From an uncultured delta proteobacterium (GTDB lineage Bacteria; Desulfobacterota; Binatia; UBA9968): DNA of 64,000 bases. Shown in pieces: positions 37,768-60,008 of the stretch; the first letter of the stretch is position 1; each line of letters starts with the position of its first letter. The stretch covers positions 401,533 through 465,532 of the forward strand of contig CAVYDL010000005.1 in NCBI GenBank assembly GCA_963767275.1, written 5' to 3'. A program made the position numbers and the translations under genes. The notes under the pieces were generated by a model. It had not been told where the DNA came from and ran no database searches. It worked only from the letters and a program-made list of their open reading frames with translations.

Positions 37768-38775
37768 ATGATCCGTTGTGTCATCGCTTTGGTGTCCTTG
37801 ATTGCAGTTTCATTGCCGGCTTCGGCCCAGACGCTGGCGCAGATCGTCGAAGGGGCCAAAACGGAAAAGGAACTGCTCACCTACGCGACCACCCAGGCGC
37901 CGGTGATGAATCGCTTGGTGCAGGGGTTCAATAAAAAATATCCGTTTGTCAAAGTCGAGTACTATCGCGCCGGCGCGGAAAAGATCGCCCAGCGTTTCGA
38001 CACCGAGGCTGCCGCGGGACGCCACGTTGTCGATGTCGTCAACTTGAGCGGCTCGGAGATGTACTGGACGGCCAAGAAAGGCAACTTCGCGGTTTACGAT
38101 TCGCCGGAAAGAAAAGCGATTCGCCCAAGTTATAAAGACAAGCAGGGTTTGTGGACGGCGCAGTACTCGACCATCGCGGTGATCGGCTACAACCGCAAGC
38201 TGGTGGCGGCGGCCGACGTGCCGAAATCCTATGACGATCTGCTCCTGGCAAAATGGAAAGGCCACATCGGGTTGGATCAAACCGACGACGATTGGTACAT
38301 GGTGCTGGTGCATGTGATGGGCGAGAAGAAAGCGGCGGAGTTCATCCGCGCTTTGGCCAAGCAAAATGTCGAATTTCGCCGCGGCCGCCAGCTGGCGGCG
38401 GAGCTCCTCGCCGCCGGCGAGTGGGCGATGGCGCCGACCATGCGCATCGCCGCCGGCGAAGAGATTCGCCGGAAAGGCGCGCCGGTGGATTGGGTCGCCA
38501 TGGAACCGCTTTTCCCCAATCCGCCCAACGCGCTGGCGCTGGCGCGCCGGGCGCCCCATCCCAACGCCGGCAAGCTGTGGATCGATTACATTCTTTCGAA
38601 AGAAGTTCAGGATTATTACGCCAACGAAGTCGGCGTCAGCGTCGGCCGCGCCGACATAACTCTAGCCAACGAACGGCTGCGCAAGCTGCGCTACGGCGAG
38701 ATCGACTGGCCGGTGTATCTGGAAAAGCTGCAGCACTATCAGAACGAGTGGCGCAAAGTCATGAAGCCTTATTAA
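37768..38775 (+). CDS. ABC-type Fe3+/solute-binding protein family 1 (FbpA/AfuA-like) SBP
   Basis: Signal peptide; motifs YYRAGAEK, HPNAGKLWIDYILSKE. Confidence 0.7.
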   Translation: MIRCVIALVSLIAVSLPASAQTLAQIVEGAKTEKELLTYATTQAPVMNRLVQGFNKKYPFVKVEYYRAGAEKIAQRFDTEAAAGRHVVDVVNLSGSEMYWTAKKGNFAVYDSPERKAIRPSYKDKQGLWTAQYSTIAVIGYNRKLVAAADVPKSYDDLLLAKWKGHIGLDQTDDDWYMVLVHVMGEKKAAEFIRALAKQNVEFRRGRQLAAELLAAGEWAMAPTMRIAAGEEIRRKGAPVDWVAMEPLFPNPPNALALARRAPHPNAGKLWIDYILSKEVQDYYANEVGVSVGRADITLANERLRKLRYGEIDWPVYLEKLQHYQNEWRKVMKPY

Positions 38776-38794
38776 CCTAGTCGGATCATCCACG

Positions 38795-39778
38795 ATGAAA
38801 ACAAAAATTTTGATATTGACCGCTATCGCATTATTTTGCGCCGCGGAATTGGCGCTTGCCGCCGATAAGCTGCGGGTCGCCTACGTCAGTCCGAGCGTCT
38901 CGCAGTCCCTGCCTTGGATTGCCAAGGAGCTGGGCATTCTCGCCAAGCACGATTTGGCCGTGGAAAATCTGTTGATCACCGGCAGCCCGCGTTTGGTCCA
39001 GGCGCTGATCGCCGGCGATGTCGATGTGATTTTCGCCGGCGTGACGGCGATGACCCGCGCGCGCATGCGCGGCGCGGACGTGGCGATACTCGGCGCTTCG
39101 GCGAATCTTTCCAGTCAAAAACTGATGGTGAGCCGCACATCGAAAATTCGCCGCCTCGAAGAAGTTAAGGGCGCGGTCATAGGCGTCTCGCAGTACGGTT
39201 CCGAGGCGGACACCTTCGCGCGCAACGCTCTGGCCAAAGTAAGCTTGAAGCCGGACAAAGACGTGACGATCATTCAGCTCGGCGGCCACCCCCAGGTCGC
39301 CGCCGCCTTGGCGGCGGGGAAACTCGAGGCGGGAATACTCGGCGGTTTGGCAATTCTCACCGCTGAGAGGTCGGGCGCGCGCTTCATCACCAGCGCCGCC
39401 GATCTGAAAATCCTCTCGCCCTCGGGCACCTTCGCCACCACGCGCGGCTATATTCAGCGCAAGCGCAGCGTCGTCGAGCGGCTGACCCGCTCCTTTGTCG
39501 AGGCGATTCACTATTTGAAGACCAATCGCAGCGGCGCGATTGTCTTGCTGCAACGATATCTTGGCGGCTTGAGCGCCGACGAGGCGAGTTATCTCTATGA
39601 CGAACAGGTCGAGTTTTTGGAGCGCATTCCCGGCCCCAATGAGAAAGCGCTCGCCGCGGTGCTCGAACGGGAGAGCGATCCCAAGATCAAGAGCCTGGCC
39701 ATCGGGGATTTTATCGACCCAAGTTTTTTTCGCGAGATTGAAAAGAGCGGATTGATCGAGCAACTGTATCGGAAGTAG
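38795..39778 (+). CDS. NMT1/THI5-like (SsuA/TauA-type) substrate-binding protein
   Basis: Signal peptide; paralog of 41114..42211. Confidence 0.75.
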   Translation: MKTKILILTAIALFCAAELALAADKLRVAYVSPSVSQSLPWIAKELGILAKHDLAVENLLITGSPRLVQALIAGDVDVIFAGVTAMTRARMRGADVAILGASANLSSQKLMVSRTSKIRRLEEVKGAVIGVSQYGSEADTFARNALAKVSLKPDKDVTIIQLGGHPQVAAALAAGKLEAGILGGLAILTAERSGARFITSAADLKILSPSGTFATTRGYIQRKRSVVERLTRSFVEAIHYLKTNRSGAIVLLQRYLGGLSADEASYLYDEQVEFLERIPGPNEKALAAVLERESDPKIKSLAIGDFIDPSFFREIEKSGLIEQLYRK

Positions 39779-39862
39779 GTTTGTCGATCTGGAGAAGTTG
39801 CGGGTCTGTCGGCACAGGGACACAGGACAAGCCGTCGCATTACCGAATGGAGCCGATGATTT

Positions 39863-40918
39863 ATGACTCTACGCAGCTGGAAACTTTCGCAGGGGATTGC
39901 GGCCTTGCTTCTGCTGGTCTGCTGCGATGTTAGCTGGGTCGCCGCACAAGCGCCGTTCTTCGACGGCAAGACGATCCGCTTGCTCGTCGGTTATCCCGCC
40001 GGCACCACCCATGACATCTGGGCCCGAACGGTCACACCCTACCTGAAAAAATATCTCCCCGGCAATCCCGATTTCATCGTTCAGTCGATGGCCGGCGCGG
40101 GCTCCATGGTGGCGGTGAATTATCTCAACGGCGTCGCTAAGCCGGATGGCCTGACGCTGGCGACTTTTAACGCCGCGCTCTATTTCGAACAGTTGATCGG
40201 CCGCAAGGAAGTACAGTTCGACTGGCCCAAGCTCGCCTGGATCGGCAGTTCGACGCCGGCAACACGGCTTTTCTATATCCGCGCCGATCATCCCTTCGCC
40301 ACCATCGCCGATCTGCGCCGGGCCGGCGAGCCGGCGAAATGCGGCACGGCGGGGCGCGGCAACAGCGGCTATATCTTGCCCAAGCTGTTCGAGGAAACTC
40401 TCGGCCTCAAGCTGGCGATCGTTACCGGCTATCCGGGCGGCGGCGAGGTCGACCTGGCGATCGAAAAGGGCGAAGTACAATGCAACTCGACCTCGCTGTC
40501 GGTCTTCTTTGGCCGCGAACCGTTTCACAGCTGGCGCAAAAAAAATTTCGTCCGCGTGTTGATTCAGACCGGCAACAAGCGCGACCCGCGACTCGCCGAC
40601 GTGCCGACGATTTACGAACTCATGGAACAGTATAAGACGCCGGAGGCGAGCCGGCGTTTGACCACGGTATTTCTCGACGCCGGACGCTTTGGTTCCTGGC
40701 CCATCGCCGGGCCGCCGGGGCTTCCGGCCGAACGGATGAAAATGCTGCGCGAGGCTTTTGTCAAAGCGCTGAACGATCCGGCTCTGCTCGCGGAAGCCGC
40801 GAAGAAACAACTGGAGGTCGAAACGATACGCGGCGAGGAGCTTGAGAGCCTGGCCAAGGAAGTGATGGCTCAGCCCCGTGAGGTGGTCGAGCGCTTGAAG
40901 GACTTGCTGCAAAACTGA
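39863..40918 (+). CDS. Bug family (TctC-like) substrate-binding protein
   Basis: Signal peptide; Bug-family fold. Confidence 0.8.
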   Translation: MTLRSWKLSQGIAALLLLVCCDVSWVAAQAPFFDGKTIRLLVGYPAGTTHDIWARTVTPYLKKYLPGNPDFIVQSMAGAGSMVAVNYLNGVAKPDGLTLATFNAALYFEQLIGRKEVQFDWPKLAWIGSSTPATRLFYIRADHPFATIADLRRAGEPAKCGTAGRGNSGYILPKLFEETLGLKLAIVTGYPGGGEVDLAIEKGEVQCNSTSLSVFFGREPFHSWRKKNFVRVLIQTGNKRDPRLADVPTIYELMEQYKTPEASRRLTTVFLDAGRFGSWPIAGPPGLPAERMKMLREAFVKALNDPALLAEAAKKQLEVETIRGEELESLAKEVMAQPREVVERLKDLLQN

Positions 40919-41113: not shown

Positions 41114-42211
41114 ATGAGAAATACGGTGTTGATTATTGCCTTTCTGGTTTTCGTTTCATTTGCCACACCTGCGGTTGCCGCCGACAAGCTGCGCGTCGCC
41201 TTCGTCAGCCCGAGCGTCGCCCTGTCGCTGCCTTGGGTGGCCAAGGAGCTGGGAATTTTGGCCAAGCATGATTTGAGCGCCGAGATTTTGCTGATTACCG
41301 GCAGCCCGCGCCTGGTCCAATCGCTGATCGCCGGCGACGTCGACGTCGTATTTGCCGGCGTCACGGCGCTTACTCGGGCCCGTCTGCGCGGCGCGGAGGT
41401 GGCGATACTCGGCGCTTCGGCCAACCTTTCGAGCCAGAAGTTGATGGTCATTCGCAGCTCGAAGGTGCGCCGGCTCGAAGACTTGAAAGGCGCGACCATC
41501 GGCGTGTCGCAGTTCGGTTCCGAAGCCGACACCTTTACGCGCAACGCGCTGGCGACGGTGGGACTTCGGCCGGAACGCGATGTGACGATACTGCAGCTCG
41601 GCGGCCATCAGCAGGTTGCGGCCGCCATGGCGGCGGGAAAATTGGAAGCCGGCGGTTTGGGCGGTCTCGCGGCGCTCACTGCGGAGCGCGCCGGGGCGCG
41701 GCTTCTCAGCAGTGCTGCGGAGCTAAAGATTCTTTCGCCTGCCGGCACATTCGCCACCACCCGTGGATATATTCAGCGCAAGCGCAGCGTCGTCGAGCGC
41801 TTGATGCGCTCGTTCGTCGAAGCGATTCACTATCTGAAAACCAATCGCAGCGGCTCCATCGCGTTGCTGCAAAAGTATCTGGGCGGATTGAGCGCCGAGG
41901 AGGCAGCTTATCTTTACGACGAGCAGGCCGATCTGTTGGAACGTCTGCCGGCGCCCAACGAAAAGGCGCTTCAGGCCGTGCTCGGGCGCGAGAACGATGC
42001 TAAGTTGAAAACGATGTCGCCGGCGGATTTCATCGACGCGAGCTTTTTTAGAGAGATTGAAAAGAGCGGCTTGGTCGAGCAGTTGTACCGGAAATGGATT
42101 TTAGCAAATTGGCGGCGTAACGTGCCACCAGAAGATGTCTCGCGCAACGGGCGCCAAGGACGCAAAGGTAATGACTTCAGAGAAGCTAGATCACGGGGAA
42201 TCCGGATGTAG
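41114..42211 (+). CDS. NMT1/THI5-like substrate-binding protein with about 40-aa C-terminal extension from stop-codon loss
   Basis: Collinear with 38795..39778 to ...EQLYRK; the TAG in the paralog is TGG here. Confidence 0.75.
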   Translation: MRNTVLIIAFLVFVSFATPAVAADKLRVAFVSPSVALSLPWVAKELGILAKHDLSAEILLITGSPRLVQSLIAGDVDVVFAGVTALTRARLRGAEVAILGASANLSSQKLMVIRSSKVRRLEDLKGATIGVSQFGSEADTFTRNALATVGLRPERDVTILQLGGHQQVAAAMAAGKLEAGGLGGLAALTAERAGARLLSSAAELKILSPAGTFATTRGYIQRKRSVVERLMRSFVEAIHYLKTNRSGSIALLQKYLGGLSAEEAAYLYDEQADLLERLPAPNEKALQAVLGRENDAKLKTMSPADFIDASFFREIEKSGLVEQLYRKWILANWRRNVPPEDVSRNGRQGRKGNDFREARSRGIRM

Positions 42212-42320: not shown

Positions 42321-42683
42321 ATGGCACGCATAGGGCATATCGCATTACTGACGAAGGACACCGAAAAACTCGCCGAGTTTTACAGGACCTCTTTCGGTCT
42401 CAACGAGGTCGCGCGCAGCGGCGAAGCCAGCGAACATGGCAAAGCGATCTATCTCTCCGACGGCCATATCAATTTGGCGATCCTTCCCGCGCGTAACCGC
42501 CGCGAGGGGATCTATCATTTCGGCATGCAAGTCGAAGACGTCAAGGGCGCCACGCAAACCGCGCTGGCCGCCGGCGCCACCGGCGGCACGGCGAATCTCC
42601 CCAAGGATGGCCGTTTTGCCGAAACCTTCGTGCTCGATCCGGTGGGCACGCGAGTGGATTTGTCGCCGGGTTGGAAAGTGTGA
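42321..42683 (+). CDS. VOC family protein
   Basis: Glyoxalase-like fold. Confidence 0.65.
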   Translation: MARIGHIALLTKDTEKLAEFYRTSFGLNEVARSGEASEHGKAIYLSDGHINLAILPARNRREGIYHFGMQVEDVKGATQTALAAGATGGTANLPKDGRFAETFVLDPVGTRVDLSPGWKV

Positions 42684-42784: not shown

Positions 42785-43804
42785 ATGATTGAGCAGGTTA
42801 TGCGAACGAACAATTTCATCAAGCTCTGCTTGTTCACAGCTCTCGGTTTATTGGTTGCGCGTGCACAACTCCATGCACAGCCGGCGCTCGAGCGAATCAA
42901 CGCGATTTATGCATCGCTGGCCGGCGATCACGCCGCGCTTTACGTGGCGCAGGAGATGGGCTTGTTCCGTAAGTACGGTCTCGATGTCAATCTCAGCTAC
43001 ACCGCCGGAGCGGCGCAAGTGATCCAGACCATGATGGCCGGCGAAAATCAGATCGCGACGGCTGGCGGCAGCGGCGTGGTCGACGCCGATATCGCCGGGG
43101 CGGATCTGGTCGCGGTGGCGGGCATGGTGAATATGCCGGCCTTCTATATCGTCGTCCAACCGGAGATTAAGTCGATTCAAGATTTGCGCGGCAAACCGGT
43201 AGGTGTCACTCGCTTCGGCTCGTCCACCGATTTCACCATGCGCTATATCTTGAAGAAGGCCGGCCTCGAGCCCGACAAAGATGTGCCATTGCTACAAATG
43301 GGCGGCCAGCCGGAACTCGCGGCGGGGATCGAAACACGGCGGATATTTGCCGCGCCGATGACGCCGCCGGCGCTACAGAAGACGCTCAAAGCGGGAGCGC
43401 GAATCCAGATCCCGCCGAAAACCATCGGTCTTAGTTTCCCTCATGTCGGCATCGTCGTGCGCAAGACTTATCTAGCCGCGCACCGTCAGGTGGTGAAGAA
43501 TTTCATCGCCGGCTATTCCGAAGGCGTCGCCATGCTGCAAAGGGACAAAGAAGGCAGCAAGAAAGCGATCGCCAAGTTTCTCCAGACCGCCGACCCCGAG
43601 GTTCTCGAAGCGAGTTGGCAGTTCGGCGTCGATGTGATCGAACGCATCCCCAATCTCGATCCCGAAATGTTCAAACTCGTCCTCGAAGAGCGCGCCCAAA
43701 CCCGTCCCGAAGTCAAGAAATTTAAACCGGAACAGTTTTTTGACGACAGCGTGGTGAAGGAACTGGAAAAGGAAGGGTTTTTCAAGAAGCTTTTTGCGCG
43801 GTAA
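42785..43804 (+). CDS. NMT1/THI5-like substrate-binding protein
   Basis: Signal peptide; SsuA-like. Confidence 0.7.
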   Translation: MIEQVMRTNNFIKLCLFTALGLLVARAQLHAQPALERINAIYASLAGDHAALYVAQEMGLFRKYGLDVNLSYTAGAAQVIQTMMAGENQIATAGGSGVVDADIAGADLVAVAGMVNMPAFYIVVQPEIKSIQDLRGKPVGVTRFGSSTDFTMRYILKKAGLEPDKDVPLLQMGGQPELAAGIETRRIFAAPMTPPALQKTLKAGARIQIPPKTIGLSFPHVGIVVRKTYLAAHRQVVKNFIAGYSEGVAMLQRDKEGSKKAIAKFLQTADPEVLEASWQFGVDVIERIPNLDPEMFKLVLEERAQTRPEVKKFKPEQFFDDSVVKELEKEGFFKKLFAR

Positions 43805-43982: not shown

Positions 43983-44273
43983 CTATTTTACTTCGTAACG
44001 CTTGACGGTGGCGCGTCCGCCTTGCAAACCGCGTGAATGTTTTTGAATTTCCGTATGGGCGTCGCTTTTGCGGTACTTGTCGATATTCGCCTGATTGTCC
44101 CACTCGGAATAGGAGATAAACTCGCCGGGTGCATCGGCGCATTCCAATAGTTTCTCGGACAGACATCCCGGCTGCTTGATCATGAGCGGAGCGCAGTGGT
44201 TTTTCCAAAGACTGATTGCCTGCGAAACCTGATCCGGCTTTACGGTAACGAAAATCATTCTGACAATCGACAT
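43983..44273 (-). CDS. antibiotic-biosynthesis-monooxygenase (ABM/Dabb) family protein
   Basis: About 96 aa ferredoxin-like fold; start MSIVRMIF at 44273 with AGGAGG RBS. Confidence 0.6.
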   Translation of the reverse strand: MSIVRMIFVTVKPDQVSQAISLWKNHCAPLMIKQPGCLSEKLLECADAPGEFISYSEWDNQANIDKYRKSDAHTEIQKHSRGLQGGRATVKRYEVK

Positions 44274-44744
44274 AATAACCTCCTTGTTAAATAATCGAAG
44301 CAAACTCGCATCCGGTAGATTGTGCCGCGAAATATCAAACTGCTTCTGTCCCTCCTTTCGCATGCAGTCGTTGAACAACCTCTAGCACCAGACTAGCAAA
44401 TAAAATTTTTCATTTCACCAGCGATTCTGAAGTTTCGCTGGGGAATTTTTACCGGCGATAATTCGACGATTCATAATCGTTCCGCAACCGCATCGGGGTT
44501 GAAACGCCGGGCGTCGATCGATCCGGCACAACGCTGGCGATGATGACTAGCGATAACTTGATTGCCTGCAGAATTTAGGGATAAATCGCTCAGCGTTCAG
44601 TTTGCGACATTCGAAGGTAGTTTTACGTGCGCAGCGATATTCAAAACGAACAAGCACTTTACCGGTCGCTCGTTCCGACTGTGATCGGTTACCGCTTGAT
44701 GGTTCGGTATCCAGGCCATCTTTGGCGCCTTTTTACTCGGGGCG

Positions 44745-45209
44745 ATGATTCCCCGCGACAGCGCCCTGGGACGAGCCCTCGTCAGTCAGCTCGATAAGGT
44801 TGTCACCATCCTGCTTCTCCCGGCGTTCTTCGCATTGACGGGCATGGGGACGCGAATCGACTTGCTATATGAGCCGTGGCAGTGGCTGATTTGTGCCGTC
44901 ATCATTGTGACAGCCGTGGGCGGGAAGTTTGGTGGCACACTGGTTGCCGCACGCCTGACCGGGTTGCGCTGGCGCGACGCGGCGATTCTCGGCACGATGA
45001 TGAACACCCGGGGGCTGATGGAATTGATCGTTCTAAACGTCGGGCTGGACTTGCAGGTCATAACGCCCACGCTCTTTGCAATGATGGTATTGATGGCCCT
45101 GGTAACCGCTATGATGACAGCGCCGGTGGTGCGGTTGCTAGATCCGCGGCCCGCCCTCGAAGAGGAGCCGGAGACGATAATGGAACATGGGCTACGAAAC
45201 CTGCGATAG
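44745..45209 (+). pseudogene. C-terminal fragment of a cation:proton antiporter (CPA/KefB/NhaP-like)
   Basis: Frame continues upstream (GIQAIFGAFLLGAMIPRD) to an in-frame TGA; no N-terminal part in any frame. Confidence 0.65.
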
Positions 45210-45248
45210 GTTGGTGACTAGATTCGCACTTCCTGTCAGCGTTGGCTA

Positions 45249-46034
45249 TTACCGCCGGGAGTCGTTAGCCGGCTCGCCTTCATCGATCGGGTAGATGTGC
45301 GGCGTAAAGTAGCGACCCACGGGCTGCTGCCCGATGAAGTTTTCGAAGTACTCGTGCCAGCGCATCGCAGCGACCCAGATCGCCTCCGGACACGAGGCGC
45401 GTGACTCGAGGCCGGGCGTTAGATCAAACTTGGCTGCTGCGCAAGCGATCTCGAGCATGCAGGCGCTCGGCAGCCCAATTCCATCAGTGAGCGGATTGGG
45501 AGTTCGCGCGGCCCCCCAGGCGAAAGCCAGCCAGCGCAGTATGTGCTCAAGGGCGTCGAGCGTCCCGCGCGAGCGCTTGAAGGTTTCAACTTTTTCCAGG
45601 ATCTGTGTCTGCGCTATGGGCAGAGCGATCAGCGCAATGTTGGGCCAGTGGTCCGGGTCGGCGAAGTCGCGCATGGGCCGGTCGACGACGCCGTTGGTGC
45701 GGGTGGCAAACACGCCCTGCGCCGGCTGCAGAAGCGGCACGTGCAGTGCCCGGGCGCGCGCCACTCTTTCGCCGCGCAGGCGGGCGAGAACGGCTTCCGA
45801 CCAGTACGAGGGCAGCATGTCACTACGCAAATGCGACTGCGCAACGCGCAGGCGGAAGGACAGTGTATCGTTCCCGCCGAGCAGCACGACGTAGGTCCAA
45901 CCGTCGGACCCGCCCGTGCCCATATCGGCGACAGCGCGCGTTCCCCATTGCAAGTTGTCTTCGTTCTTGAGCCGCGTCAGCGGCTTGAGCAACTGGTTCT
46001 TGGTTTTGCTCGTAGATTGAAGTTGACGCAGCAT
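45249..46034 (-). CDS. hypothetical protein (third gene of lipase-PhoD operon)
   Basis: Start MLRQLQ at 46034 with GGAGA RBS, 19 nt after the PhoD-like stop. Confidence 0.5.
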   Translation of the reverse strand: MLRQLQSTSKTKNQLLKPLTRLKNEDNLQWGTRAVADMGTGGSDGWTYVVLLGGNDTLSFRLRVAQSHLRSDMLPSYWSEAVLARLRGERVARARALHVPLLQPAQGVFATRTNGVVDRPMRDFADPDHWPNIALIALPIAQTQILEKVETFKRSRGTLDALEHILRWLAFAWGAARTPNPLTDGIGLPSACMLEIACAAAKFDLTPGLESRASCPEAIWVAAMRWHEYFENFIGQQPVGRYFTPHIYPIDEGEPANDSRR

Positions 46035-46053
46035 TGGTTGGGTCTCCGTGGGG

Positions 46054-48380: not shown

Positions 48381-48503
48381 TGCAAATTGTTTTACTCGAA
48401 AACGCGAATTCGGTAAATATGTCGGAGCCGTAGTTTGGCACCATTGTCCTAGCAGACAACGATTTGCATTCGTGGTAAATGAGCCGGTGGAGGAACAGTC
48501 GAA

Positions 48504-49652: not shown

Positions 49653-49657
49653 GGATT

Positions 49658-50023
49658 ATGTCGATCAAGCTGAATCACACGATTGTGCCGGCTAAAGACA
49701 AAGACGCCGCGGCGCGATTGTTCGCGAAGATTTTTGGCCTCACCTACGATGGACCGATGGGCCATTTTGCCCCGGTGCGGATTAACGACGAGCTGACACT
49801 GGACTTCGATAATGCCGATTCCTTCGAGCCGCATCATTACGCCTTTCATGTCAGCGACGAGGAATTCGATGCGATCTTTCGGCGCATCCAAGATACCGGC
49901 CTGACCTGGGGCAGCGAGCCGCGGAGTCCCACCAACGGTCAATTGAATACTCGAAAGGGCGGCCGCGGCATATACTTTCATGGACCCGACGGCCATTTGC
50001 TCGAGCTGCTCACACGGCCGTGA
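49658..50023 (+). CDS. VOC family protein
   Basis: Glyoxalase-like fold. Confidence 0.65.
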   Translation: MSIKLNHTIVPAKDKDAAARLFAKIFGLTYDGPMGHFAPVRINDELTLDFDNADSFEPHHYAFHVSDEEFDAIFRRIQDTGLTWGSEPRSPTNGQLNTRKGGRGIYFHGPDGHLLELLTRP

Positions 50024-51295: not shown

Positions 51296-52195
51296 TTGTC
51301 GGTGGCGCAATCGACTGACGATAAATTTCGCGTGACGCTGCTCGGCACCGGTGCGCCGCCGCCGCGCTTGGATCGATTTGGGCCTAGCACATTGGTCGAA
51401 GTCGGCCAGCAGAAATTTATTTTCGACGCCGGCCGCGGTGCGATGCAGCGGCTGCATCAATTGGCCATTCCGTTCAGCGATATCACCGGCCTTTTTCTCA
51501 CCCATCATCACTCGGATCATGTCGTCGGCTTTCCCGATCTCTGGCTCACCGGATGGATCGGCCGGCCCTGGGGACAGCGTGCGCAGCCGTTGCCGGTGTA
51601 CGGTCCAGTTGGAACGCGGCAGATGATGGAGCATCTGCCGCTGGCTTTCCACGTCGATATCCGCGTGCGCAGCCGCGTTTATCCGCCGGACGGCGTCAAA
51701 TTGGACGCCTGCGAGATTAGCCAAGGCGTGGTGTTCGATCATGCTGGGGTCAGGGTCAGTGCGTTCGAGGTCGACCATGGCGGCGAGGAATTGCCGGCCT
51801 ATGGTTACCGCATTGATTATCAAGGGCGCTCGGCGGTGCTTTCCGGCGATACCACCTTCAATGAGAATTTGATCGATCATGCCCAGGGTGCCGATTTACT
51901 GGTGCATGAGGTCACGGCGCTCGCCGGCAGCGCGGCCGAAGATCCGCAACAATTGAAAAGAATCGGCGCCAACCACACCACGCCGGAGCAGGCCGGTGAG
52001 GTGTTCGCGCGGGTGCGGCCGAAGCTGGCGGTGTTTAATCACCTACTGCTGTTCGGCAGCGCGCAGCCCAGGGACTTGATACCGGCGACGCGAAAAAATT
52101 ATGACGGGCCCTTGATCGTCGGTGAGGACTTGACGCAAATAGAAATCGGCAGCGAGATTCGCACCCTACCGTTCCAGCCCAAGCTGGGTCAGTGA
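51296..52195 (+). CDS. MBL-fold metallo-hydrolase
   Basis: HxHxDH motif LTHHHSDHVVGF. Confidence 0.7.
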   Translation: MSVAQSTDDKFRVTLLGTGAPPPRLDRFGPSTLVEVGQQKFIFDAGRGAMQRLHQLAIPFSDITGLFLTHHHSDHVVGFPDLWLTGWIGRPWGQRAQPLPVYGPVGTRQMMEHLPLAFHVDIRVRSRVYPPDGVKLDACEISQGVVFDHAGVRVSAFEVDHGGEELPAYGYRIDYQGRSAVLSGDTTFNENLIDHAQGADLLVHEVTALAGSAAEDPQQLKRIGANHTTPEQAGEVFARVRPKLAVFNHLLLFGSAQPRDLIPATRKNYDGPLIVGEDLTQIEIGSEIRTLPFQPKLGQ

Positions 52196-52349: not shown

Positions 52350-53345
52350 ATGAGAATAATTTTTATATGGCTATTGTGCTGCGGCTGGCTCGGGCTCACG
52401 CCGGTCGCTTTTTCGGCTGCACTCGAGCCGGTCACCATCGGTTACTCGACGTTTGCCGGCGCCTATCTGCCACTCTGGATTGCCATCGAAGAACGATTGG
52501 GGAGCAAATACGGTCTCGATCTGCGCGCGATCTATGCCGGCCGCATCAGACCGCAACAGCTTCTGGCGAGTAACGAAGTGCCGTTTGTCATGGCTTCAGG
52601 CACCGGCGCGATCACTTCACATATTCTCGGTATCAAGGACCAAGCGATTATCTTGGTCACGATCAACAAGGTTAATTCGGCGATATTCAGCAAGCCGGAG
52701 ATCAAACGGGCCGAGGATCTACGCGGTAAAACCATTGCCACCGGCCGCCCCGGCGCCTTCGGCGATACCATGGTGCGCTACGTCTTGCGCGCTAAGCTTG
52801 GGCTCGTGCCGGACCGCGATGTGAAGATGTTGCCGATCGGCGAAGCGCAGCTCGCTTTCCCGGCGCTCGAGCGCGGCGTCGTCCAGGCGGCGTCGTTGAC
52901 CCTTCCTTTTACTTTGATCGCCAAAAAAATGGGCTATCGGGAGTTGATCGATTACGACCAGGCAGGCGTCGTATATCCGTACAATACCGTTACCGCGCTG
53001 CGCCAGACGGTGGTGAAGCATCCCGATCTCACCGAGCGGGTCTTAAAGACGCTCATCGAAGGCAGTCATATCGCCACGACCGATCGGGAAAAAAGTTTGA
53101 CGGTGATGAAAAAATACCTGCGCGGAACCAGCGACGATATCCTGGACGAAACCTATCGCTACACCAAGAGCGTCACCGAAGAGGTGCCGACGCCGTCGCT
53201 GGAAATCACCAAGGCAGCGCTGGAAATTCTCTCCTATGAATACCCCAAAGCGAAAGACACCGACGCCAACCTGATCATCGATACGACGATCATGAAACGC
53301 ATAGAACAGAGCGGCTTCATCAAAGCCTTGTATAAAAATAAATGA
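52350..53345 (+). CDS. NMT1/THI5-like substrate-binding protein
   Basis: Signal peptide; tandem paralog of the next gene. Confidence 0.75.
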   Translation: MRIIFIWLLCCGWLGLTPVAFSAALEPVTIGYSTFAGAYLPLWIAIEERLGSKYGLDLRAIYAGRIRPQQLLASNEVPFVMASGTGAITSHILGIKDQAIILVTINKVNSAIFSKPEIKRAEDLRGKTIATGRPGAFGDTMVRYVLRAKLGLVPDRDVKMLPIGEAQLAFPALERGVVQAASLTLPFTLIAKKMGYRELIDYDQAGVVYPYNTVTALRQTVVKHPDLTERVLKTLIEGSHIATTDREKSLTVMKKYLRGTSDDILDETYRYTKSVTEEVPTPSLEITKAALEILSYEYPKAKDTDANLIIDTTIMKRIEQSGFIKALYKNK

Positions 53346-54409
53346 CGAGAGCATACACAATGGCCGGGTCACGGTGTAGACGGCGGTGTCGGGTCAAACC
53401 AAAAAACCGACTTCGCTGGGTCGCAACCGCCATCGCACTGTTGCCGCTATGGATGGCCGCCGCCTCGACGGTCTCGGCGGCGGCCAAGTTAGAAACCCTC
53501 ACCGTCGGTTATTCCAATTTTACCGGCACCTATGCGCCGCTCTGGGTGGCCGTCGAAGAGAATCTTGGCGCTAAGTATGGATTGGATTTGAAAGCGATCT
53601 ACGCCGGGCGGATCCGGCCGCAGCAGTTGCTCGCTATCGGTGAAGTGCCGATCGTGCTCGCCACCGCCACCGGGACGATTACCTCGCATATTCTCGGCGT
53701 GAAAGATCATGTGTTGGTGGCGACGATCACCAACAAAGTCGGCACGTCGATATTCGCCCGCGGCGATATCAAAAGCGTCGAAGATCTCAAAGGCAAGACC
53801 ATCGCCACCGGCCGGCCCGGAGCGTTCTTGGACGCGACCGTGCGCTACGTGCTGCGGAGCAAATTCAACCTGATGCCGGACCGCGATGTAAAACTATTGC
53901 CCACCGGCGAGCCGTCCCTCGGTTTGCAGGCCCTGGAACGGGGCGTTGTCGAAGCGGCGGCGATGTCGAGCCCGCATATGTTTGTCGCGCGCAAAGCGGG
54001 ATTCAGGGAGTTGGCCAGCTTCGACAAGTTGGGCGTCGAATATCCTTACACCAGTGTCGTGGTGCTGCGTCAAACGGTGGTGAAGAGCCCGGACTTGATC
54101 GAGCGCTTCCTAAAGACCATCGTCGAGGGAATTTATGTCTTCAAGACTAATAAGGCGAAGACCTTGGCGGCGTTCAAGCGCTACATGAAAGGCGCCGACG
54201 ATGAGATCCTCGAAGCAACCTACCAGCATAGCCGCGCGACGTTGGAAGATGCGCCCCATCCGACCCTCCAGTCGGTGAAGGTGGCGTTGGAAATGTTGGC
54301 GCTGCAATACCCGCAAGCGAAGCAGACCGACCCGAATCTCATCGTCGAGCCGATGTTTATGAAAAAGATCGAAGACAGCGGTTTCATCCGCGCGCTGCAC
54401 AAGAAATAA
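53342..54409 (+). CDS. NMT1/THI5-like substrate-binding protein (tandem duplicate)
   Basis: Collinear similarity to 52350..53345; start uncertain. Confidence 0.7.
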   Translation: MTRAYTMAGSRCRRRCRVKPKNRLRWVATAIALLPLWMAAASTVSAAAKLETLTVGYSNFTGTYAPLWVAVEENLGAKYGLDLKAIYAGRIRPQQLLAIGEVPIVLATATGTITSHILGVKDHVLVATITNKVGTSIFARGDIKSVEDLKGKTIATGRPGAFLDATVRYVLRSKFNLMPDRDVKLLPTGEPSLGLQALERGVVEAAAMSSPHMFVARKAGFRELASFDKLGVEYPYTSVVVLRQTVVKSPDLIERFLKTIVEGIYVFKTNKAKTLAAFKRYMKGADDEILEATYQHSRATLEDAPHPTLQSVKVALEMLALQYPQAKQTDPNLIVEPMFMKKIEDSGFIRALHKK

Positions 54410-54414
54410 ACACC

Positions 54415-55293
54415 ATGGCCGACAGCGACGAGATTCTCTATGACAAGCAACGTCAGGGCGTGCTGATCACGCTCAATCGTCCGGCGGCGATGAACGCGGC
54501 GACCCGGCCGATGTTGCACAAGCTCGGCGCGGCGCTCGACGATGCCGTCGCCGATCCGCAAGTGCGCGCCATTGTCCTGACCGGCTCGGGACGGGGCTTT
54601 TCCACCGGCATGGACCAGGGCGGCGGCGCGGCGCACCGGCGCGACATGGACTGGCCCTACGGCGTGCGCGCCGGTGAGAACGCGGCGGACTTTATCGACA
54701 ACTACCGCGGCCATGAGGCGATCTTCATGCGCATCTTCGAATGCTCCAAGCCGGTCATTGGTGCGATCAACGGTTGGGCCATGGGCGTGGGCTCATGGAT
54801 GTCGTTGTTCACCCATATCACCATCGCCTCGGAGCAGGCGGTGTTCGCCCAGCCGGAAGTGCGTCACGGCTCCAACACCGGATTTATCTGGACACTGCTC
54901 GCCGGCTTCAAAGACGGCCTGCGTTACTCCCTCACCGGCGACCATATCGACGCCCAGGAGGCGTTGCGCATCGGCCTGGTCAACCAAGTCGTGCCCGGCG
55001 ACCGGCTGCTCGACGAGTGTTTTGCGATTGTCGAACGGATCGCCATGGTGCCGCCGGAAACGGTCAAGCTCAATCTCCAACTGGCCACCATGGGCATGCA
55101 GATGATGGGCTTCAAAGACGCCTGGACGATGGATGGACAATTGTCGGCGGCGGCGCACACGCTGCTGCGCGAAGAGTTGCGCCGTCCGCTCGATGAAAAA
55201 CGAAAGTCCGAAGGAACCAAAGCTTACTTGCAGATGCGCGATGGGCCGTTTCAACCGGAGCCGTTTGGGCCGCGGGCGAAGCGGCGCGATTAA
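54415..55293 (+). CDS. enoyl-CoA hydratase/isomerase family protein
   Basis: Crotonase fold; motifs VLTGSGRGFSTGMD, INGWAMGVG. Confidence 0.8.
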   Translation: MADSDEILYDKQRQGVLITLNRPAAMNAATRPMLHKLGAALDDAVADPQVRAIVLTGSGRGFSTGMDQGGGAAHRRDMDWPYGVRAGENAADFIDNYRGHEAIFMRIFECSKPVIGAINGWAMGVGSWMSLFTHITIASEQAVFAQPEVRHGSNTGFIWTLLAGFKDGLRYSLTGDHIDAQEALRIGLVNQVVPGDRLLDECFAIVERIAMVPPETVKLNLQLATMGMQMMGFKDAWTMDGQLSAAAHTLLREELRRPLDEKRKSEGTKAYLQMRDGPFQPEPFGPRAKRRD

Positions 55294-55302
55294 GCGCGCC
55301 GC

Positions 55303-55410
55303 TGGTTCAAAACGTTCAAGCCGTTCAAATCGTTCAAAATGTCGGAGAAGCGGGCTCCGATAACCTCCGAGACGACTTGAACGATTTGAACTTTTTGAAC
55401 GGCTTGAACT
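55303..55410. repeat. GTTCAA/TTGAAC hexamer-cluster inverted repeat (best copy)
   Basis: gttcaa-aac-gttcaa-gcc-gttcaa-atc-gttcaa, about 45 nt spacer, then ttgaac-gat-ttgaac-ttt-ttgaac-ggc-ttgaac. Confidence 0.85.
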
Positions 55411-55434
55411 CCGGGAGAATGAAAGAAAACGATT

Positions 55435-56298
55435 GTGGCCAACTTCGAAACGATTCTGTTCGAAAAACAGCGCTGCGGCGTATTGATCACCTTCAATCGG
55501 CCGGCGCTGCGCAATGCGCTCAACCAGCGCTTGAAAGACGAGTTGCGGGCGGCCTTGGAGCTGGCGCGCGATGATGAAGCGATTCGTGCCGTGGTGCTGA
55601 CCGGCGCGGGCGGGGTGTTTTCCAGCGGCGACGATATGAACGAGTCAGTAGCCGGCAAGCCGGCGTGGCCCTATGCCATCGCCGAGGGCAGCGCCCTGGC
55701 GGATGTTTATAATCGGCTGCGCGACCGGGCCCGGCAGGAAAAGATCGACGAACAGCTTTATCGCTGGCAGTTTCCCAAGCCGATCATCGCGGCGGTCAGC
55801 GGTTGGTGTCTCGGTTCGGCTTCGTGGCTGGCGTTGTCGTCTCATCTGACGATTGCCGCCGATGACGCCGTCTTCGGTCAGCCGCAGGTGCGCCATAGCG
55901 ATGGCGCGGATTTTATCTGGACCGTTTTGGGCAAGTTCAAGAACGCTCTGCGCTATGGCCTCACCGGTGATCCTGTCGACGCCAAGGAAGCGTTGCGCTT
56001 GCGCCTGGTCAACAAAGTTGTGGCGAAAGACCGGCTGCTCGACGAATGTTTCCAGCTGGTCGAGCGTATTGCCCTGGTGCCGCCGGAGACCGTAAAGATC
56101 AATTTGCAAAAAGCCACTTCCGGGTACGAGATGATGGGTCTCGGCAAGGCCTGGTCGCTCAATGCCGAACTGTCGGCGATGGCACAGTTGTCGCGCCGGG
56201 AGGAGTTTTATCAGCCGTTGGAAGCGGCGCGCGAGCACGGCGGTTGGAAAGCTTTTTTTGCCGCCCGCGATGCGCCGTTTCGCGATCAAAAGAAATAA
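55435..56298 (+). CDS. enoyl-CoA hydratase/isomerase family protein (tandem paralog)
   Basis: Motifs VLTGAGGVFSSGDD, VSGWCLGSASW. Confidence 0.8.
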   Translation: MANFETILFEKQRCGVLITFNRPALRNALNQRLKDELRAALELARDDEAIRAVVLTGAGGVFSSGDDMNESVAGKPAWPYAIAEGSALADVYNRLRDRARQEKIDEQLYRWQFPKPIIAAVSGWCLGSASWLALSSHLTIAADDAVFGQPQVRHSDGADFIWTVLGKFKNALRYGLTGDPVDAKEALRLRLVNKVVAKDRLLDECFQLVERIALVPPETVKINLQKATSGYEMMGLGKAWSLNAELSAMAQLSRREEFYQPLEAAREHGGWKAFFAARDAPFRDQKK

Positions 56299-56363: not shown

Positions 56364-57398
56364 ATGCTGATGGGATACTTGAAGTTTCGTTGCCTGCTGG
56401 CGGTTACTCTGTGGTTCATCTCCTTTGAGAACTATTGTCAGGCGCAGGCGAGCGATCCCAAGATCGTCGAGGCGGCGAAGAAGGAAGGCGGCGAGATCGA
56501 GGCTTACGTCACCCTGCGCACCGATACGGCGCAATATATTTGGAAGATGTTCGAAGCCAAATATCCGTTCGTAAAAGTGAAGCAGTACAAGGCTGACAGC
56601 GACAAGATGCTGCAACGCTTGGCCACGGAATATCGCGCAAAGAAGTATCTCGTCGATGTGCTCAATTTTGGCGGCGGCTTTCACACTCAGGTATTGATCG
56701 AGCATGGCATCGCCGGGGCTTACCTGTCGCCGGAGACGAAACACTTTGCGCCGGCGTTCAAAGAGAAGAACGGTCTGTGGACGACGCTCTATTACAACCC
56801 GCTGACGATCGTTTACAATACCAAAATACTAGCGCCGCAAGAACGGCCCAAAGAGTGGTTCGATCTCTTGCATCCGCGCTTCAAAGGCCGCTTGGCCATC
56901 GAGCAGGAGCAGGTCACTTGGTACGCCGGTATGTTGAAACGCTACGGCGTGGAGAAGGGCAAACAGTTCATGCAGGGACTGGCCAAACACGATCCGCGTC
57001 CCGAGCAGTCGTCGCGCGGCAATGCGCTGCTCGCCGCCGGCGAGTTTGCCGCCTACATCGGCCGCGGCCATGTGGCGGAGATGTTCAAGAAAAAAGGCGC
57101 GCCGGTGGACTGGATCAAAAATCCCGATCCGCTGGTCGTCCAGCCGGCGACGGTGCAGATCGCCAAGCACGCGCCCCATCCAAACTCAGCCAAACTTTTG
57201 ATCGACTTCATGTTATCGGAACAAGTTGGCGAACTCTTGGCCAAAGAGCAGCGTTTGCCGGGGCGCAGCAATGCCGCCGGCCTCGATCCGGCTTTTAAAG
57301 AGATCAACGCCGATAAAATTTTGCCTTTATCGATGGAAGAGGTGCAGGCGAACTTTCGAAAATATTTGGAAGAGTATAGAACATATTTCGGCAAGTAA
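56364..57398 (+). CDS. ABC-type Fe3+/solute-binding family 1 SBP
   Basis: Signal peptide; motifs YKADSDKM, HPNSAKLLIDFMLSEQ. Confidence 0.7.
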   Translation: MLMGYLKFRCLLAVTLWFISFENYCQAQASDPKIVEAAKKEGGEIEAYVTLRTDTAQYIWKMFEAKYPFVKVKQYKADSDKMLQRLATEYRAKKYLVDVLNFGGGFHTQVLIEHGIAGAYLSPETKHFAPAFKEKNGLWTTLYYNPLTIVYNTKILAPQERPKEWFDLLHPRFKGRLAIEQEQVTWYAGMLKRYGVEKGKQFMQGLAKHDPRPEQSSRGNALLAAGEFAAYIGRGHVAEMFKKKGAPVDWIKNPDPLVVQPATVQIAKHAPHPNSAKLLIDFMLSEQVGELLAKEQRLPGRSNAAGLDPAFKEINADKILPLSMEEVQANFRKYLEEYRTYFGK

Positions 57399-57413: not shown

Positions 57414-57797
57414 ATGGGCAAGGCAACGGAAAGAGCAAAAACCGGTAATGTGACGATCGCCACGGTGCGACGGTCCGACGAAGCGCGCCAGGTCGCGGCG
57501 CGGCTGGAAGCCGCGGGTATCGAATGGGGCATCGTCGAAGAACGGCGGACGGTGCTCGCCAGCGGCGGCGGGTACCGCGCCGGCGGCATCAAAGTGCAGG
57601 TCGACCGCAACGACGCCAAGCGGGCCGTCGAGCTGTTGCGTGAACGGCGCGACGCGGCGCCAGCGCCGGAGGATCGCACGTTCCATGTCGGCGCCAAGCG
57701 TCAAGTGCGGGCGGTTAGATGGTGGCGCACGGCTCTCGAAGCGGGCGCAATTCTTGCCTTGGCGTCGTTGTTGGCGCTAGGGTTTTTTGTCGATTAA
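57414..57797 (+). CDS. DUF2007-like small protein with C-terminal TM helix
   Basis: 127 aa; C-terminal hydrophobic ILALASLLALGFFV. Confidence 0.4.
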   Translation: MGKATERAKTGNVTIATVRRSDEARQVAARLEAAGIEWGIVEERRTVLASGGGYRAGGIKVQVDRNDAKRAVELLRERRDAAPAPEDRTFHVGAKRQVRAVRWWRTALEAGAILALASLLALGFFVD

Positions 57798-57828
57798 ATT
57801 TTTTTATTTATAGGAAGAGAGACATTCA

Positions 57829-58869
57829 ATGCTCGATGGAAAGCTGCGCATTGCGCCGACCTGTTACCATGTGCTGCATCAAGTGCCGGTGATGACGGCC
57901 CATGAATTGAACTTTTTCTACGACGAGGGCCTTAAGACCGCCGACGGTTCCCTCGGCTACGAAATCCTCACCGACGCGATGGTGCCGTTCGGCTTGGAAA
58001 AGCTCGGCATCTCCCAGGCGATGAAGGAAAAATCGGTGGACATCGCCCTCGACGTGCAGTCGCGTACGGTGTTTTACCAGCGCGCCCGGGGGGCGGATCT
58101 CTACGTCATCTCCGGCTGGCGCAACCAGCATACCAACGTCTGGGTCGCGCCGCCGCATATTAAGTCCCTCAAGGAATTGAAGGGCAAGCGGGTTGGCATC
58201 AGCGATTTCAACAGCATTCGCCACTGGGCGATTCAGATTCAATTGAAAAAGGCCGGCCTCGATTTGGACAAGGACATCGAGTGGGTGCGCATCGGCGTCA
58301 ACTCGCGGCTGCATCTAGACGCGATCCGCAGCGGTCGAGTCGAATGCGCGCCGGTGCCGCCCTGGTATGCCAAAGAGTTGCAGGCCGAGGGATGTAATGC
58401 GCTGGTGTCGCCGGCGGATCAGTACCCCGACGGCCGGCCCGAGCGCATCATCGCCGCCACCGGCCGGATCCTCGAAGAGCGGCCCGACTTGGTCAAGGGG
58501 TTTCTTAAAGCGATGATCCGCTCCTATTGGTTCGTGCGCGATATGCCGAAGAACTACGAGTATATTTCCAACCTGGAAAAACGGCTGCGCTTGCGCAGCC
58601 CCGATCCCGAAGAACGTATCGTCAAACATATGCGTTCGGCTCAGGATTTAGAAGCGATGCCATTCCCATTGGACGGACGCGCCACCGGCTTTGAAGACAT
58701 GCTCAAGGAAGAAGAGCGGCTGGGCGAGCTTAATTACGAGGTCCCGGCAATCGGCGATGTAGTGGCCCAGGACTTGGTCGATGAGGCCTATCGCGAGCTG
58801 CGCGGGCGCAAGGATTTGGATGAGGAGTTTGAACGTTTAAAGGTGATTGAAAAACGCTGGGGATATTAG
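57829..58869 (+). CDS. NMT1/THI5-like domain protein lacking a signal peptide (cytoplasmic)
   Basis: SBP-like class II fold; N-terminus MLDGKLRIAPTCYHV has no hydrophobic leader. Confidence 0.55.
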   Translation: MLDGKLRIAPTCYHVLHQVPVMTAHELNFFYDEGLKTADGSLGYEILTDAMVPFGLEKLGISQAMKEKSVDIALDVQSRTVFYQRARGADLYVISGWRNQHTNVWVAPPHIKSLKELKGKRVGISDFNSIRHWAIQIQLKKAGLDLDKDIEWVRIGVNSRLHLDAIRSGRVECAPVPPWYAKELQAEGCNALVSPADQYPDGRPERIIAATGRILEERPDLVKGFLKAMIRSYWFVRDMPKNYEYISNLEKRLRLRSPDPEERIVKHMRSAQDLEAMPFPLDGRATGFEDMLKEEERLGELNYEVPAIGDVVAQDLVDEAYRELRGRKDLDEEFERLKVIEKRWGY

Positions 58870-58964
58870 CTATTAGCGTGTTTATTTAATGTGTTCCATG
58901 TATAATTTTTAAAGCGTTTTCACCTGGTTTCCTTAACCGCAGTTAATAAACGAAAGAGAGTCTA

Positions 58965-60008
58965 ATGAGAGCAAGGCCTTATAAATATTTTCAAATTCTA
59001 TCGGTGTTATTCCTGTGCAGTGGGAATATTTCTGCCGTCCACGCGCAGAACGCGAAAAGCTTTCTTGACGGTAAAACCATTACTTTTCTGGTCGGCTCGT
59101 CGGCCGGCGGCGGCACGGATGTGACGGCGCGGTTGATCGCGCGCCACATCGAACGCCATTTACCAGGCAAGCCGCGTATCGATGTCGCCAACAAACCGGG
59201 GGCGGGCGGCATGATCGCGGCCAATGAGCTTTACAATTTGAAGAAGCCCGACGGTTTGAGCATCAGCACGCTCAACACCGGCGCGCTGTTCGCGACCGCC
59301 ACAGCCAACGACGCGATCAAGTTCGATCTGCAAAGGTTTCTCTGGGTCGGCCAAGCCTTCGATGACGCTCAGGTGCTGTATCTCAAGACTTCGACGCCCT
59401 ACACCAGCTTCGATTTGATCAAAAAAGCCAATCGCGAAGGCAAGCAGCCCAAGATGGGCGCGCAGGCTCTCGATCACACCAGCAATGTCGTGGTAAAAAT
59501 CGCCGAGCAAATTTTCGGCTTGGACTTCACGGTGATACCGGGCTATCCCGGCACGCCGCAGATTCTCCTCGACATCGAGCGCGGCGCTCTCGATGGCCGC
59601 GCCCAGGGCATCGGCTCCCTGATGTCGACCCGGCGCGAGTGGATCAAAAGCGGCTATATTAAAATCTTGGCCACCTCCAAGCGGCGCCGCGACTCGCGCG
59701 TCCCGGATGTCGCTGCCATGGAAGAGATCGCGCCGGCAGGCAGCAAAGGGCTGCTCAACGCGCTATACGCCGGACAAAACCTCGCCCGCTCAGTGGTCTT
59801 GCCGCCGGGCGTGCCGGCGGATCGGCTGAAAATCTGGCGCGATGCTTTCGCCGCCATGACCAAAGACGAGGCCTTCAACAAAGAGGCCGAGAAACTCGGC
59901 CTCGAAGTCGAATTGATCCGCGGCGAAGAGATGAATCGCGACATCGAAAGCACGCTCCGGGATAAGCGGCTGATGGATCTCTACCGCATGATCGCCTCGG
60001 CGAAATAA
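58965..60008 (+). CDS. Bug family (TctC-like) substrate-binding protein
   Basis: Signal peptide; Bug-family fold. Confidence 0.8.
   Translation: MRARPYKYFQILSVLFLCSGNISAVHAQNAKSFLDGKTITFLVGSSAGGGTDVTARLIARHIERHLPGKPRIDVANKPGAGGMIAANELYNLKKPDGLSISTLNTGALFATATANDAIKFDLQRFLWVGQAFDDAQVLYLKTSTPYTSFDLIKKANREGKQPKMGAQALDHTSNVVVKIAEQIFGLDFTVIPGYPGTPQILLDIERGALDGRAQGIGSLMSTRREWIKSGYIKILATSKRRRDSRVPDVAAMEEIAPAGSKGLLNALYAGQNLARSVVLPPGVPADRLKIWRDAFAAMTKDEAFNKEAEKLGLEVELIRGEEMNRDIESTLRDKRLMDLYRMIASAK

Follow-up and report, generated by a model that had tools for sequence, protein, structure and literature searches.

Why does one stretch of bacterial DNA encode a crowd of periplasmic solute-binding proteins (SBPs) and no permease or ATPase to partner them? 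The question is raised by 64 kb (hereafter the window, meaning the whole stretch of DNA analysed) of contig CAVYDL010000005.1 from an uncultured delta proteobacterium assigned to the Binatia. The Binatota are a globally distributed phylum of soils and sediments that has, to our knowledge, no cultured member. Genes were detected in the window by six-frame listing of open reading frames (ORFs), by Pfam scans and by a tblastn sweep that used every SBP found, and the flanks were read on the source contig (ENA ERZ25039516 contig_213, 2.35 Mb long, recognized by an exact protein match) for 9.5 kb before the window start and 8.7 kb past its end; the source-contig DNA examined for translocons, window and flanks together, amounted to 83.5 kb. 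On it, 17 SBP genes stand against no translocon gene. In our view, the window probably displays a lineage-specific expansion of orphan SBPs whose cargo would go to a small set of common translocons with genes at other loci.

The original prediction had placed fourteen SBP genes between positions 37768 and 60008, nine of them NMT1/THI5-like, three Fe3+-type and two Bug-type. The cluster was confirmed while the count had to be corrected: the span holds 12 SBP genes, seven of which match NMT1/NMT1_2 (SsuA-like; N-type below), three SBP_bac_6 (F-type) and two TctC (T-type), and the number of 14 applies to the whole window, with eight NMT1-like, three SBP_bac_6 and three TctC genes. Twelve among the approximately 27 genes of the span is a share that far exceeds the frequency of SBPs in any ordinary genome. 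All twelve lie on the forward strand, beginning with F1, an FbpA/PhnS-type protein (37768..38775; Pfam 55.4 bits) whose nearest NCBIfam model is PhnS, at a score far under the cutoff, and continuing with N1 (38795..39778; NMT1_2, 65 bits), T1 (39863..40918; TctC, 47 bits), N2 (41114..42211), N3 (42785..43804; NMT1, 87.4 bits), F2 (48504..49514; 66.7 bits), N4 (50170..51168; NMT1, 74.2 bits), N5 (52350..53345), N6 (53360..54409), F3 (56364..57398; 80.6 bits), N7 (57829..58869) and T2 (58965..60008; 51.8 bits). The ORF of N4 opens at 50071, with the ATG at 50170 as the likely start, and for N6 a start is also listed at 53342. Outside the span lie N0 (18787..19746, forward strand; NMT1, 100.5 bits) and T0 (29264..30322, reverse strand), which has no Pfam match at E<=0.01 and was recognized as TctC-like by blastp (3e-39 to T1, 2e-37 to T2). 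All eight N-type proteins exceed the Pfam gathering score (NMT1 36-100 bits versus a cutoff of 20.5), as do F1-F3 for SBP_bac_6 (55-81 bits versus 24.6) and T1 and T2 for TctC, where the cutoff is 27. A Sec-type signal peptide with n-region, h-region and AXA-type site was recognized, by heuristic reading, in 13 of the 14 SBPs, including seven of the eight N-type proteins, and these 13 are called the exported SBPs below. The remaining one, N7, had been predicted to lack a signal peptide and does so, since it begins at the first strand of the mature fold; we describe it as a cytoplasmic SsuA/THI5-fold protein. Around N0 (18787-22034) we observed genes for a LigXa-like Rieske oxygenase and a dienelactone hydrolase, a setting which hints that some orphan SBPs may serve the catabolism of aromatic or lignin-derived acids.

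All 14 ORFs are intact, and the tblastn sweep with all SBPs revealed no SBP fragment or pseudo-copy in the window. Identity between paralogues is mostly 22-41%, a divergence by which we judge them to be old, the exceptions being the tandem duplicates N1/N2 (77%) and N5/N6 (57%). N2, a recent duplicate of N1, carries an extra C-terminal read-through tail of 38 amino acids, rich in Arg and Gly, beyond the stop position of N1, and its ancestral stop codon appears to have been lost. In the curated NCBIfam models, the best match of the five N-type proteins tested is SsuA_fam, at 45-98 bits versus a cutoff of 163.5, and the scores of SsuA_fam, TauA and SaoX are not reached. The nearest models for the F-type proteins are 2-aminoethylphosphonate (2-AEP) SBPs, at 53-70 bits versus cutoffs above 310, and their best PDB sequence matches are iron-binding proteins, and also pyridoxal phosphate (PLP)-binding and 2-AEP-binding proteins. 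Because 2-AEP models are nearest and the PDB relatives bind iron, PLP or 2-AEP, the earlier label 'Fe3+-type' is correct as the name of a family, SBP_bac_6, and is to be dropped as a statement of iron function.

No partner of these proteins is encoded beside them. BPD_transp permeases, importer ATP-binding cassette (ABC) ATPases, TctA and TctB were found neither in the 64 kb window nor in its two flanks, and tblastn of Binatia TctA, TctB, permease and ATPase seeds against the 83.5 kb gave a match only to the nucleotide-binding domain of an exporter. Likewise, there is no FbpB-type fused permease with an FbpC ATPase beside the F-type genes anywhere in the 83.5 kb, and the gap of only 95 bp between T2 and the GlmL-like gene that follows it contains no tctA or tctB. 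The flanks instead hold major facilitator superfamily (MFS) genes, a fused exporter-type ABC gene and three more SBPs (a faint TctC, an NMT1 and an SBP_bac_5). Taken literally, the earlier statement that no membrane component is encoded between 22 and 62 kb fails, for the membrane-related genes there include ChrA (24493-25731), an NfeD-like protein, a flotillin, a Na+/H+ exchanger remnant and a tail-anchored protein of 127 amino acids; for importer parts it holds, and it extends to the whole window and the flanks.

We compared the window with 80 loci of relatives (numbered with L), obtained from an N7-family scan of one genome per species, whose ORFs were annotated by phmmer using window genes and Pfam-checked genes of those loci as seeds. 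The N7 homologues carry names of 'Candidatus Binatia' or 'Deltaproteobacteria' proteins from metagenome-assembled genomes (MAGs), and nearly all of the 80 loci are labelled as Binatia or as uncultured delta proteobacterium. The core gene order in relatives consists of a crotonase and two CoA-transferase genes pointing leftward, then variable SBP genes, then, pointing rightward, N7, TctC, in some cases TctA and TctB, and a GlmL-like gene. In L004 the CoA-transferases directly abut the series crotonase-crotonase-F3-127aa-N7-T2-GlmL, and the window holds about 17 kb (37768-54409) inserted at that junction. The longer array N4-MBL-N5-N6-crotonase-crotonase-F3-127aa-N7-T2-GlmL-LLM-ABC exporter (MBL, metallo-beta-lactamase-fold hydrolase; LLM, luciferase-like oxidoreductase) recurs in L006, L008 and L069 with 84-97% amino acid identity for the SBPs and enzymes, 71-80% for the GlmL-like protein and lower values also for the 127-aa gene. 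Comparison of the window with L008 or L069 gave dN/dS ratios of 0.04-0.17 for the SBPs, and the values of the enzymes next to them fall within this range too; individual examples are F2 (L069 orthologue 92% identical, 0.065), F3 (0.059) and N4 (orthologues 97% identical in L006 and L069, about 0.1), and N3 has an 85% identical orthologue in L015. Since gene order is kept in relatives and dN/dS is low enough to indicate purifying selection, the orphan SBP genes are functional and maintained and are not debris. One gene departs from its surroundings: N7 of L069 (10001-11041) is 83% identical to that of the window with a dS of 2.1, versus 91-97% and a dS of 0.2-0.6 for the flanking SBP, crotonase and MBL genes, which suggests an allele replacement or a recombination among N7 paralogues there. 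Eight or nine SBP genes per 21 kb are common in the related loci. The window is an extreme case of a lineage-wide pattern and no singular event; the density that had been called unusual is indeed well beyond ordinary genome frequency, but it is the norm around this module across Binatia and not peculiar to this locus.

An excess of receptors over translocons is also seen in this N7-centred sample. Across 81 loci, comprising 1.16 Mb after removal of overlapping ORF calls, we counted 208 periplasmic-type SBPs (80 NMT1-like, 66 SBP_bac_6 and 62 TctC) plus 88 N7-like genes, and 11 BPD permeases, 6 importer ATPases, 8 TctA and 7 TctB. Of the 87 SBPs with 5 kb or more of sequence between them and either end of their locus, 14 (16%) have a membrane or ATPase gene of the cognate type within 5 kb, which leaves about 84% orphan. 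Ten of 24 unannotated ORFs with multiple transmembrane segments in the related loci were checked by Pfam, and none was an SBP-dependent permease; the checked ORFs were rhomboid, TauE, EamA, TerC, MFS, Rce1-like and similar proteins.

The few translocons that do occur in relatives are of the three types that match the SBPs. A TctA-TctB pair lies between the T2 orthologue (47-65% identity) and the GlmL-like gene in six loci (L040, L044, L048, L074, L079 and L085), with TctA confirmed by Pfam in L044 and TctB in L085, and the remaining TctA and TctB assigned by sequence similarity. From this arrangement we infer that tctAB may have been lost or moved in the clade of the window, leaving T2 an orphan. 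For the NMT1-like SBPs, L034 has an ATPase-permease-NMT1 set (ABC_tran, BPD and NMT1), L010 has a NitT/TauT set of permease, ATPase and SBP, and L086 and L087 have a compact NitT/TauT permease-ATPase-SBP operon in unrelated genomic contexts. In more than 120 sequence clusters the NitT/TauT permease shows 83-90% identity, as would be expected of a single housekeeping 'gate'. FbpB-like fused permeases with two BPD domains (560-590 aa) are found near SBP_bac_6 genes in L011 and L052, both confirmed by Pfam, and in L056, L060 and L067. In passing, we noted that many TctA homologues are about 680 aa long and have both TctA and TctB Pfam domains, thus appearing to be TctA-TctB fusions; a few are named Candidatus Binatia and most are nameless.

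These observations can be joined in one explanation, which we regard as the probable one. The NMT1/SsuA-like, SBP_bac_6 (FbpA/PhnS-like) and TctC families would have expanded as orphans in Binatia, their genes in the window piling up in a rearrangement-prone gap inside a conserved catabolic module that has the crotonase and two CoA-transferases on one side and N7, TctC and the GlmL-like ATPase on the other. In the periplasm, each of the 13 exported SBPs would bind a small organic anion of its own and pass it to a small number of shared translocons encoded elsewhere, namely one conserved ABC importer of the NitT/TauT type, ABC importers of the FbpB type, and TctAB, and the adjacent CoA-transferases, crotonases, VOC, ABM and MBL proteins would process the imported substrates in the cytoplasm. 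Sharing of transporters encoded elsewhere was one of the roles first suggested for these SBPs; it emerges as the best-supported of them, by comparative support that comes from cognate translocons in relatives and not from this genome. That this genome possesses such translocons elsewhere, that the orphans dock on them and what their ligands are we infer. Several points weigh against the explanation. Translocon genes were located in relatives and none in this genome. The NMT1-like orphans of the window share only about 30% identity, in a partial alignment, with the SBP of the conserved NitT/TauT operon, and this makes it uncertain that they are compatible with docking on that translocon. None of the 10 SBPs tested reaches the score of a curated NCBIfam subfamily, so that no ligand is assignable; the signal peptides were scored only by eye and by hydrophobicity (h-region, AXA-type site); and the sample of related loci is centred on N7 and hence biased, not an unbiased genome sample.

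One rival is that the operons of the SBP genes continue past the window edges and include the matching permease and ATPase genes there, in which case the SBPs would not be orphans at all. The lineage can arrange its genes in this way, for in L010 the NitT/TauT importer is only about 1 kb from the N4 orthologue of the array. However, precisely such genes were looked for in the 9.5 kb and 8.7 kb flanks, which contain no BPD_transp, importer ATPase, TctA or TctB; the orphan status originally proposed therefore stands, and this rival is very improbable. Even harder to credit is an array of duplicated DNA in decay, or one created by faulty assembly. The locus does bear scars, among them the truncated Na+/H+ exchanger, a 3.2 kb insertion and the read-through tail of N2, but the intactness of 14 of 14 ORFs and the dN/dS values argue against decay, and the order and reading frames are kept in independently assembled MAGs of other species.

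More serious, though unlikely, is the proposal that the exported orphan SBPs are periplasmic sensors which, when loaded with ligand, bind sensor kinases or chemoreceptors and so regulate the neighbouring catabolic genes. Some SBPs are known to act as sensors, among them one of the TctC family (BctC-BctE), and the same has been proposed for orphan Bug proteins (PMC9602780; PMC5994714), and a kinase/regulator pair lies about 8 kb from N7 in L008 and L010. Against it, the 64 kb window encodes neither a histidine kinase nor a response regulator, and the Pfam annotation of the flanks shows none; of the 80 related loci only about 8 have kinase genes, which do not adjoin the SBPs there; and the T2 orthologue lies within complete tctCAB operons in relatives. 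Chemoreceptors are absent from the Pfam domains of the genes examined, with no search aimed at them, and the sensory role that had been offered as an alternative thus found no support in gene position. Somewhat less likely again, we think, is that the exported SBPs act without any membrane partner, as periplasmic buffers or scavengers of scarce organic acids or as periplasmic enzymes with an SBP fold. The lack of a partner gene in 83.5 kb would agree with this, and the SsuA/THI5 fold is used by the enzymes THI5, DszB and MqnD; but the known enzymes of this fold that we found are cytoplasmic, the seven periplasmic N-type paralogues have only 16 invariant alignment columns, as one would expect if receptors diversify and not if an active site is conserved, and the lineage does possess translocons of the three types that would fit. 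An enzymatic role, also raised at the outset, is improbable for the 13 exported proteins and a serious possibility for the cytoplasmic N7.

N7 is not a transport receptor and differs in kind from the 13 exported SBPs. Its start lies 31 nt past the stop of the preceding gene, and its homologues, among those listed, are mostly 346-348 aa long with an N-terminus alike. A comparison of 80 distinct family members (54-97% identity) shows conservation of 97% or more at 140 of 346 positions, with C12-Y13-H14-x-x-H17 after strand 1, H25, E26 and C173 among the conserved residues. The position of C12-Y-H14-x-x-H17 presumably resembles that of Cys27 in DszB, which we take as a lead only. Several genomes have four or five N7 paralogues, and L047 has three in tandem. 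The preceding gene (57414..57797, forward strand) encodes the 127-aa protein, which matches no family and consists of a soluble N-terminal domain with one C-terminal hydrophobic helix as tail anchor; it is kept directly 5' of N7, an arrangement seen in about 14 related loci.

The other companion of N7 is the GlmL-like ATPase (60104..61540, forward strand), which matches Pfam MutL (PF13941) at 477 bits and passes the NCBIfam accessory_GlmL equivalog at the border, with 480.6 bits versus a cutoff of 475. No glutamate mutase gene (GlmS, GlmE) was found among the Pfam-examined genes of the window, nor do the Pfam annotations of the flanks show one, the related loci not having been searched specifically; the steady neighbours of the GlmL-like gene in related loci are N7 and TctC. 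Among 26 N7 orthologues of at least 76% identity, 24 have a GlmL-like ATPase no more than 4 kb away and 19 have a TctC, and more distant N7 paralogues have GlmL in three of 21. With low confidence, we propose that N7 may act as an enzyme or may handle a ligand as partner of the GlmL-like ATPase, in a conserved module for carboxylate uptake and CoA activation. N7 has its SsuA/THI5 fold and cytoplasmic location in common with the hydroxymethylpyrimidine phosphate (HMP-P) synthase THI5, the desulfinase DszB, MqnD and the regulatory domain of CmpC/NrtC, but it is only 13-17% identical to them, and its gene setting with a GlmL-like ATPase, TctC and CoA-transferases is unlike theirs.

Combining the two lines gives a bolder picture, which we put forward tentatively and hold to be possible at best: Binatia would follow a principle of 'many receptors, few gates' on both ABC importers and TctC systems, and N7 with the GlmL-like ATPase would form a new enzyme or substrate-handling pair in a carboxylate-to-CoA-ester pathway fed by TctC(AB). 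Within this joint and doubtful reading, one conserved NitT/TauT translocon and a few of the FbpB type would serve, in multiplex, dozens of orphan NMT1/SsuA-like and FbpA/PhnS-like SBPs, or even more.

Expansions of orphan SBPs have been a puzzle for a long time and are known almost exclusively from the tripartite tricarboxylate transporters (TTT; Bug proteins) of a few Proteobacteria. Orphan Bug/TctC SBPs are over-represented in Bordetella, Cupriavidus, Comamonas and Rhodoplanes, the last with 434 copies (PMC5994714; PMC9602780); in Bordetella and Rhodoplanes they exceed TctAB by far, and a shared translocon has already been proposed for them (PMC5994714); in a survey of 49 model strains, TctC alone was singled out for such extreme SBP numbers (PMC9602780). 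The Binatia loci resemble these expansions in that exported SBPs, TctC included, greatly exceed membrane components, that the genes are scattered beside catabolic genes, and that the same two hypotheses, a shared translocon or sensing, apply. They are unlike them in that two ABC-type families, NMT1/SsuA-like and SBP_bac_6, co-expand with TctC, and in that the host is one of the Binatota and not of the Proteobacteria. Among ABC importers, AdcAII uses the AdcCB translocon. MppA, an orphan ABC SBP of E. coli, works through OppBCDF and so demonstrates sharing on a small scale (PMC3173086). As with MppA and AdcAII, which work through a translocon that owns another SBP, the ABC-type SBPs of the window are encoded away from a permease; but those cases involve one or two extra SBPs per translocon, whereas our sample has approximately 10-25 SBPs per permease, and sharing is here a proposal. 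The likeness to SsuABC/TauABC is that the N-type proteins match NMT1/NMT1_2 with SsuA_fam nearest, and that Binatia have the canonical permease-ATPase-SBP operon; unlike in those systems, the N-type genes lie beside CoA-transferase and crotonase genes and not a sulfonate monooxygenase, and have no adjacent permease or ATPase.

In the literature we found no description of a comparable orphan co-expansion of NMT1/SsuA-like and SBP_bac_6 proteins, and nothing relevant on SBPs or transporters in Binatota or on GlmL together with SBPs; the main published genome survey of Binatota does not discuss SBPs or transporters (PMC8262859). The best reading is that our finding extends the known orphan pattern of Bug/TTT to two ABC families. 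If it holds for these, 'one translocon, many receptors' would be a general and cheap way to widen substrate range, and SBP repertoires would tell more of the diet of Binatota than transporter counts do. The conserved NitT/TauT translocon offers a concrete docking test, and the N7/GlmL pair, with its strong conservation signal, is a well-defined target.

The array is embedded in a variety of other genes. The enzymes said to be interleaved with the SBP genes are in the span as far as two crotonases, two VOC proteins, an ABM protein and an MBL hydrolase are concerned, and the CoA-transferases lie not in it but just upstream, together with a third crotonase. This left arm of the Binatia module (33865..37349, reverse strand) consists of the crotonase E0 and two family III CoA-transferases (ECH_1 and CoA_transf_3 in Pfam), the pair of which occupies 34818-37349, and its order, all three genes pointing leftward, is found in many relatives. 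Between E0 and the first CoA-transferase, at 34727-34822, we observed 7-nt repeats, GAAAATT / TTTTCAA. Within the span, a VOC/glyoxalase-fold protein (42321..42683, forward; Pfam Glyoxalase) precedes N3, and an ABM-domain protein (43983..44378, reverse) follows it. A second VOC/glyoxalase-fold protein (49658..50023, forward; Pfam), which has orthologues in relatives, is separated from F2 by a 12-nt tandem repeat, GAATCGATCTTG, in 6.2 copies at 49578-49651, and the MBL-fold hydrolase (51296..52195, forward; Lactamase_B_2) is kept within the array in relatives. On the right, the conserved arm continues past the GlmL-like gene, which is tied to N7 orthologues, with the LLM oxidoreductase (61784..62659, reverse) and the 5' part of a fused exporter-type ABC protein (62810..64000, forward; ABC_membrane and ABC_tran), which is the single ABC gene of the window and not an SBP-dependent importer. 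Scans for sigma-70 promoters and terminators gave counts not above those in shuffled sequence, and we therefore drew no operon boundaries.

The scars mentioned above lie between the ABM gene and F2. At 44704..45221 (forward) is a frameshifted 3' remnant of a Na+/H+ exchanger gene whose 5' part is gone, as recognized by a Pfam Na_H_Exchanger match to model positions 248-373 only and by blastn and tblastn comparison with L069. It is followed by a GC-rich insertion of 3.2 kb (45222..48443, reverse; about 65% GC), which carries a 283-aa protein without assigned family, a PhoD-like phosphatase and a class 3 lipase, and which is delimited by base composition, Pfam and the L069 junction at 964/1086. 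L069 lacks this insertion, and there the exchanger lies directly 5' of the F2 orthologue.

Between the two crotonase-family genes of the span, E1 and E2 (54415..56298, forward; ECH_1), we observed a hairpin of 105 nt (55305-55409) composed of four GTTCAAnnn units, a spacer and four nnnTTGAAC units with a 9-nt period, which as RNA has a predicted folding energy of -53.9 kcal/mol (z = -5.6). In L008 and L030 the architecture is kept at the same place with the hexamer altered to GTTCCA/TGGAAC. At least three further intergenic sites of the window, at about 409-506, 8997-9050 and 30941-30969, have similar GTTCAA clusters, and because of these the hairpin looks like a dispersed repetitive extragenic palindrome (REP)-like or regulatory element. 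Lastly, the region at 22000-30000 has a lower GC content (50-52%) and contains genes for chromate resistance (chrB-chrA), for a DUF6815 protein and for a NusG-like paralogue that stands alone (27522-28019), and it may be another acquired segment.

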